From the UHGV virus genome UHGV-0343520: a stretch of 13,648 nt of DNA; one strand, 5' to 3'. The DNA is from a virus. Positions 2,335-2,723 of the stretch are shown here, piece after piece (position 1 is the first letter of the stretch; each line of letters starts with the position of its first letter). The position numbers and the translations under genes are program-made. The notes beneath the pieces are model-generated. The model was not told the origin of the DNA. It did not search any database and saw only the letters and a list, made by a program, of their open reading frames with translations.

Positions 2335-2380
2335 GCGGGTATCGTATAATGGCTATTACCTCAGCCTTCCAGGCTGATGA
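2335..2380 (+). pseudogene. tRNA-Gly(UCC)-like 5' fragment (acceptor 5' strand, D arm and anticodon arm only)
   Basis: GCGGGTATCGTATAATGGCTATTACCTCAGCCTTCCAGGCTGATGA matches, from memory, the first ~46 nt of E. coli glyT with two substitutions and retains a TCC anticodon. The following sequence has no T arm (no GGTTCGATTCC) and no complementary 3' acceptor strand, so it is not an intact tRNA. Confidence 0.4.
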
Positions 2381-2723
2381 CGTGGATGAGGCTCTGGTTT
2401 TGCAGCACTGGCGTTTTTTCGTGGGGAAAGGTCTCCTGAGCTCCTTTATCGCTACCCCAAATTATAACAGAGACCAGTTATAGTTTCGGTGCTGTGTTTT
2501 TTTTACAATATTGTGATAACACATTGCTGGCGGGAGTTTTGATATTCCTTGGCAGGGGATGATGATGCGTTATCCTGATGTCGTCAACTCATATAAAATG
2601 AGATGAGAGATCATCGCCGGGTGGTTTGTAATTCGCTGTTTAGCGGGACAATATGTTGTCTGATACAAGACACCCGACGCCTCAGATTACTATAATAAAG
2701 ACGAAGCATCCTTTGTATTGACC

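Follow-up and report, generated by a model that had tools for sequence, protein, structure and literature searches.

Why does a prophage carry the front part of a tRNA gene, cut off in mid-gene, in the DNA between its late antiterminator and its lysis genes? The question arises at positions 2335-2385 of the 13,648-nucleotide stretch of viral genome UHGV-0343520 analysed here (the window), where a first-pass annotation described an orphan 5' half of a tRNA-Gly(UCC)-like gene and took it for the relic of a phage tRNA gene broken by recombination or, failing that, for an old integration or recombination junction or a tRNA-derived regulatory fragment. We conclude that 2251-2647 is very probably the remnant of a decayed phage tRNA module, and that the Gly fragment within it is a non-functional pseudogene produced by a 33-bp deletion.

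The element is a lambdoid prophage of E. coli, Rac-like in carrying trkG, a gene of the Rac prophage of K-12. The location first given for the fragment, in the intergenic region between Q and lysis, is correct, as the upstream boundary of the region is a Q-like late antiterminator gene at 1194-1736 (+) (phrog_753 “anti-termination protein Q-like”, E 6.7e-79, the ORF also matching Pfam DUF1133 with 355 bits and, weakly, Phage_antitermQ), and the holin and endolysin genes begin from 4558. Just after Q, a hairpin followed by a T run can be read from the sequence at 1817-1843 (+) (AAAAAAACCGC-TTAAT-GCGGTTTTTTT), which looks like a candidate tR'-type terminator, and an equivalent hairpin lies at the same place in relatives (by alignment, with scan matches in contigs L062 and L035). 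About 1.6 kb without a credible gene separates Q from two ORFs with TolA C-terminal domains, and these are followed in order by holin, endolysin, Rz, trkG, a ParB_N-TAGT protein, small terminase, large terminase and portal genes.

Some of these neighbours deserve mention in their own right. The long non-coding stretch from Q to the TolA-like ORFs also includes, at 3035-3221 (+), a strong match to the Rfam sRNA family STnc100 (RF02076; 86.6 bits against a gathering score of 47, E 1e-18). The TolA-like ORFs themselves (3332-3760 and 3911-4306, both +) are tandem paralogues, both phrog_5772, just upstream of the holin gene, and in strain APEC 102026 the annotation gives the first of them as a truncated pseudogene. 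The trkG gene (5851-7326 (+), for a potassium transporter of the TrkH family) sits as an insertion between the lysis genes and those for packaging, and the terminase and portal ORFs downstream of it in the window look intact. Between trkG and the small terminase gene, 7464-9179 (+) encodes a 571-aa protein with a ParB N-terminal domain and a TAGT (TET-associated glycosyltransferase) domain (PF20691, 118 bits), which may function in DNA modification.

Window positions 2335-2380 read GCGGGTATCGTATAATGGCTATTACCTCAGCCTTCCAGGCTGATGA and are identical at 44 of 46 positions to the real glyT of E. coli K-12 (reference sequence from NC_000913.3), the differences being C6T and A38G, in agreement with the 46-nt likeness with two substitutions that had been claimed. 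This likeness is beyond chance: with up to 3 mismatches allowed, the 5' part of glyT finds a single site in the window and has no match in any of 200 dinucleotide-preserving shuffles. Both differences are found in phages. The T6 variant is present in the intact phage tRNA-Gly of SerU-LTIIb, JLK-2012, contig L119 and most IMG/VR copies, and in those phage genes the base that pairs with it in the acceptor stem, close to the 3' end, is A instead of the G of glyT; the G38 variant is present in the intact tRNA-Gly of JLK-2012. When the phage allele is used for the comparison, the match extends to Gly position 51 (49/51 against L119, and 46/48 against SerU-LTIIb and JLK-2012), so that the fragment, defined by its identity to these three and to K-12 glyT, comprises the first 51 nt of a phage-type tRNA-Gly(UCC) gene, at 2335-2385 (+), exactly the extent first assigned to it. 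It keeps the 5' acceptor strand, the D arm, the anticodon arm, the variable loop and 3 nt at the start of the T stem, and by homology, as distinct from function, it belongs to the tRNA-Gly(UCC) lineage, TCC anticodon included.

No intact tRNA was found in the window by ARAGORN (0 genes), and the Rfam tRNA model (RF00005) gives only 16.2 bits at 2335-2407, under its gathering score of 29. The T arm and 3' acceptor strand (GGGTTCGATTCCCGCTRCCCGC), already reported as missing, have no match on either strand of the window with up to 3 mismatches, and a search of this window for the 3' half of a split or permuted gene found none, adjacent to the fragment or elsewhere. The minimum free energy fold contains neither an acceptor nor a T stem (z = +0.24), so there is no complete cloverleaf, and what remains of the Gly gene, being unable to form one, cannot be processed or charged as a tRNA. 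RefSeq carries no annotation at the site and we found no paper on this relic.

The suggestion that a phage tRNA gene had once stood here, downstream of Q, is supported by intact arrays at this position. Phage phi467 has an intact Thr-Gly array between stx and the lysis genes, SerU-LTIIb has intact Arg-Gly and Thr-Gly arrays at the corresponding position, and JLK-2012 has an intact Asn-Thr-Gly array directly after Q. The junction ACCATATGCGGGTATCGTATAATGG, which runs from the 3' end of the upstream tRNA through TAT into the beginning of Gly, is present in at least 120 IMG/VR viral contigs, and the Gly gene is full-length in 120/120 of the retrieved viral contigs with this phage-type Thr/Gly junction. 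About 50 of the at least 120 contigs also have the Q module of the window (138-1798) at 87-98% identity, and in these the array usually starts some 290 nt past the equivalent of window position 1798. ARAGORN, run on ten of these loci (L043, L029, L119, L035, L073, L032, L072, L062, L070 and L009), called Thr(tgt) and Gly(tcc) in all except L073, where the locus is cut by the contig end and Gly only was called.

Variants of the module were also seen among the relatives. In two of the 120 loci the anticodon arm of tRNA-Gly contains additional bases (CTCAGCTCAACCTTCCAGG or CTCAGCTCAACCTTCTAGG), and these are further variant or damaged copies. A tRNA-Gly pseudogene at L138 7986-8110 (-), and at the corresponding site in L145, is of full length (51 of 67 positions identical to the intact gene), has decayed by point mutation and is not called by ARAGORN; the same CAGCACTGGCGTTTTTT trailer comes after it, and genes for tRNA-Met and tRNA-Arg(tct) lie about 500 nt upstream. 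As this pseudogene is independent and in a separate lineage, loss of the Gly gene has occurred more than once. About 650 nt downstream from the intact Gly gene, several related phage contigs give odd 82-nt ARAGORN calls, as “tRNA-Tyr(ata)” or “tRNA-Val(aac)” (L035 1129-1210, L073 795-876, L146 3299-3380, L130 1469-1550 and L135 2535-2616), which may be false or may reflect a tRNA-like element, and which have no counterpart in the window.

Comparison with these intact relatives shows how the Gly gene of the window ends. Contigs L119, L035 and L073 align with the window over 2240-2647 (BLAST E 6e-67 against L119), and in the L119 alignment a single 33-column gap lies between well-aligned sequences after Gly position 51, placing the breakpoint at 2385/2386. 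The bases lost there are GTTCGATTCCCGCTACCCGCTCCA, which is 24 nt of the Gly gene (positions 52-75), and 9 nt of spacer, GCAAAACAA. Past the gap the window runs on in register (ATGAGGC...CAGCACTGGCGTTTTTT), and identity to L119 is 96% to the left (49/51) and 88% to the right (100/114). In the alignment the deletion ends show no microhomology of 2 nt or more. In 13 further viral contigs with the same trailer, a full-length Gly gene is followed by an AAAACAA spacer and then by ATGAGG. The statement in the first-pass annotation that the sequence “diverges completely” after the fragment is thus true only against glyT, for the DNA past 2385 is the sequence that normally lies downstream of intact phage copies: the trailer at 2386-2647 (+) is homologous to the flank of intact Thr-Gly arrays, both by its identity to L119 and by the motif CAGCACTGGCGTTTTTT, which is common to 22 viral contigs. 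The opening 115 nt of the trailer, 2386-2500, are better conserved against L119 (88%) than the 147 nt that follow (71%). They include a long-range CAGCAC...GTGCTG pairing that runs out into a series of T residues and may serve the tRNA module as a terminator or processing element.

As judged from this alignment, the break is an in-place deletion by which the normal downstream flank was moved up, and the idea that the gene was broken by recombination gives way to one internal deletion of 33 nt, on either side of which the sequences are homologous. Lambdoid phages are mosaic, conserved tRNA genes could serve as crossover points, and the leader upstream of the relics (1897-2240) has no homologue in the phage collection, all of which would suit a recombination junction between unrelated phage modules, as the annotation had principally proposed. 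The DNA to the right of the break is, however, the normal trailer of intact arrays, 88% identical over 115 nt and offset by one 33-nt gap, so that no foreign DNA joins here and a module junction at this point is ruled out, leaving that reading very unlikely as an account of the fragment. Still harder to believe, to the point of being almost inconceivable, is that the fragment is an old att-site remnant of another element which targeted tRNA-Gly. Integration into tRNA genes is common, and prophage ends do carry annotated orphan pieces of tRNA, such as the pseudo tRNA-Ser with which the SerU-LTIIb record closes. What an att duplication copies, however, is the 3' end of the tRNA, and such a duplicate would be expected at a prophage edge; the fragment is the 5' 51 nt, lies mid-prophage with phage-module homology on both sides, and has neither an integrase gene nor an inserted element nearby.

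The Gly fragment does not stand alone, as it adjoins a second relic that was absent from the first-pass annotation. Upstream of it, and separated from it by the same TAT spacer (2332-2334 (+)) as in intact phage arrays, 2251-2331 (+) aligns with the intact L119 Thr gene as a decayed full-length tRNA-Thr(UGU), a thrU-like pseudogene, with 51/73 positions identical (70%) and a 5-nt insertion at the anticodon loop. It is called by neither ARAGORN nor Rfam, and among 12 tRNAs tried the thrU-type Thr gave the best alignment score. A TCT in the alignment hinted at a tRNA-Arg(UCU) of the SerU-LTIIb type, and this was rejected because Thr scores 49 against 30 for Arg, the identities being 51/73 for thrU-type Thr with the 5-nt insertion and 46/72 for Arg. 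The 24 substitutions in the Thr relic comprise 14 GC>AT against 7 AT>GC, with GC content falling from 50% to 39.5%, a pattern which fits unconstrained (neutral) decay. Further tRNA relics were sought in 1850-2250 by local alignment with Met, Lys, Arg, Asn, Thr, Tyr and Gly genes taken from related arrays, and all scores were at shuffle level.

The two relics differ greatly in divergence from their intact counterparts, and this bears on the order in which they were lost. The 5' part of Gly has 2/50 mismatches against 22/73 in the Thr relic (Fisher p = 3e-4) and 42/145 in the distal trailer (p = 1e-4), while its identity does not significantly exceed the value for the trailer next to it (p = 0.15). 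At a divergence of 30%, no more than 2 mismatches would arise with a binomial probability of 4e-6, which together with the lower divergence of Gly suggests that Gly was inactivated later than Thr. The original module, of the kind found in many lambdoid phages, would have consisted of tRNA-Thr(UGU), TAT, tRNA-Gly(UCC) and trailer between the Q antiterminator and terminator and the lysis genes. The Thr gene would have been the first to lose function, as its 70% identity, the insertion in its anticodon loop and its AT-biased substitutions suggest, and the Gly gene would have stayed nearly unchanged, under constraint, until one recent 33-bp deletion took most of its T arm (sparing the first 3 nt of the T stem), the 3' acceptor strand, the CCA and 9 nt of spacer. 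An intermediate allele, with decayed Thr, intact Gly and the window-type leader, was found in none of IMG/VR, the GTDB representatives, the complete E. coli genomes and the metagenomes, and the five known carriers are identical across the relic, so the order and timing of these events are what we infer from divergence.

The same truncation could also be reached by another history, in which an old Gly fragment was refreshed by recombination or gene conversion with intact phage-type tRNA-Gly copies in co-resident prophages, leaving a mosaic boundary near 2330. Identity to L119 is indeed stepped, from 48% in the leader to 70% in Thr, 96% in the 5' part of Gly, 88% in 2386-2500 and 71% in 2501-2647; the difference between Gly and the adjacent trailer fell short of significance, as given above; and donor copies exist, since up to 6 places per E. 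coli genome match the search query. We consider this history unlikely, because conversion running over the end of the deletion would usually bring back the 33 nt that were lost, because T6 and G38 are phage-type and so exclude the host glyT as donor, and because no donor combining G38, C47 and T49 was seen.

The relics are rare. Among 5426 complete E. coli genomes, the 560-bp segment that contains both of them (1897-2456) is kept in 3, and 444 carry instead the common variant of this prophage region, in which the segment is missing and positions 1896 and 2457 are joined. Contig L005 exemplifies the common form, aligning only to window 1740-1896 and 2457-3330 with the junction at its own positions 4157/4158. 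Because homology to L119-type loci crosses 2456/2457, the arrangement in the window is ancestral and the common form is a derived deletion. One metagenome contig, L128, was the only metagenomic sequence with the relic pattern, and the relic sequence is identical in all five carriers (the window, the three genomes and L128). The Thr-relic pattern had no matches in IMG/VR or in the GTDB species representatives, and the pattern spanning the 33-nt deletion junction had none in IMG/VR, nor did a degenerate version of it in the GTDB species representatives. With 444 genomes having deleted it and 3 keeping it, the relic is dispensable.

These numbers also bear on whether the fragment might be a functional tRNA-derived RNA, a regulator or decoy resembling a tRNA half and made from the Q-dependent late transcript. 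The fragment is 2/50 diverged beside a neighbour at 30%, and the region, being downstream of Q, is probably transcribed on induction. We nevertheless judge such a function to be very unlikely indeed: predicted structure in the region is no more stable than that of shuffled sequences (z = -0.69 for 2335-2500 and +0.24 for 2335-2410), a near-identical prophage region exists without the fragment in the 444 genomes, compared with the 3 of 5426 that retain it, and the deletion junction is absent from IMG/VR and the GTDB species representatives. The proposal of a regulatory fragment in the first-pass annotation accordingly found no support. A specific form of it, which strikes us as extremely unlikely, would have a late Q-dependent transcript cut at the 5' end of the fragment by RNase P or another nuclease, with a putative 51-nt RNA persisting like a tRNA half and having a role of its own; were this true, the RNA might be a decoy for a tRNA-targeting enzyme or a regulator, and its role would explain 96% identity beside a neighbour at 70%. 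A consensus scan of the window gave a promoter-like match at 2323-2350, which pairs a TATAAT in the D arm with the upstream acceptor strand, and as the same match occurs equally in intact arrays (scans of L062 and L035) it is a by-product of tRNA sequence. We infer that no residual function is left in the Gly pseudogene.

Taken as a remnant of a phage tRNA module, the locus is a clear example, and one that can be dated, of the way accessory tRNA genes disappear after a lambdoid prophage becomes resident and cryptic, the sequence of loss probably being point-mutation decay of one gene, a small deletion in its neighbour and, in most strains, loss of 560 bp. What has decayed, in the ordinary manner of prophages, is a phage accessory module of a well-known kind, and for annotation two tRNA pseudogenes could be entered, at 2251-2331 and 2335-2385.

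The nearest known systems are the phage Thr(UGU)/Gly(UCC) arrays of phi467, SerU-LTIIb, JLK-2012 and the IMG/VR contigs. The window is like them in position, lying between Q with its terminator and the lysis genes, in the order Thr(UGU), TAT, Gly(UCC) and homologous trailer, in the TAT spacer itself and in the T6 allele; it differs in that neither tRNA gene is intact, both being dead, Thr through point mutations and the 5-nt insertion and Gly through the 33-nt deletion. The chromosomal thrU-tyrU-glyT-thrT operon of E. coli shares with it the 44/46 identity of glyT over the 5' part, and thrU is the gene to which the upstream relic is most similar, but in that operon tyrU separates thrU from glyT, and the operon lies upstream of tufB, whereas the window has the T6 and G38 alleles and phage-type flanks.

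The tRNA genes that Stx phages carry near their toxin genes are likewise accessory tRNA genes in a lambdoid late-regulatory region; unlike those of the window they are intact, and they have other tRNA identities, the set of 933W being ileZ-argN-argO. According to PMC7946995, which cites Bailly-Bechet 2007, such accessory tRNA genes are thought to supplement the decoding of phage-preferred codons. The pseudo tRNA-Ser of SerU-LTIIb, an orphan of the att type, is another partial tRNA associated with a prophage, but where att duplicates are 3' ends at prophage borders, the fragment in the window is an internal 5' part left by an internal deletion.
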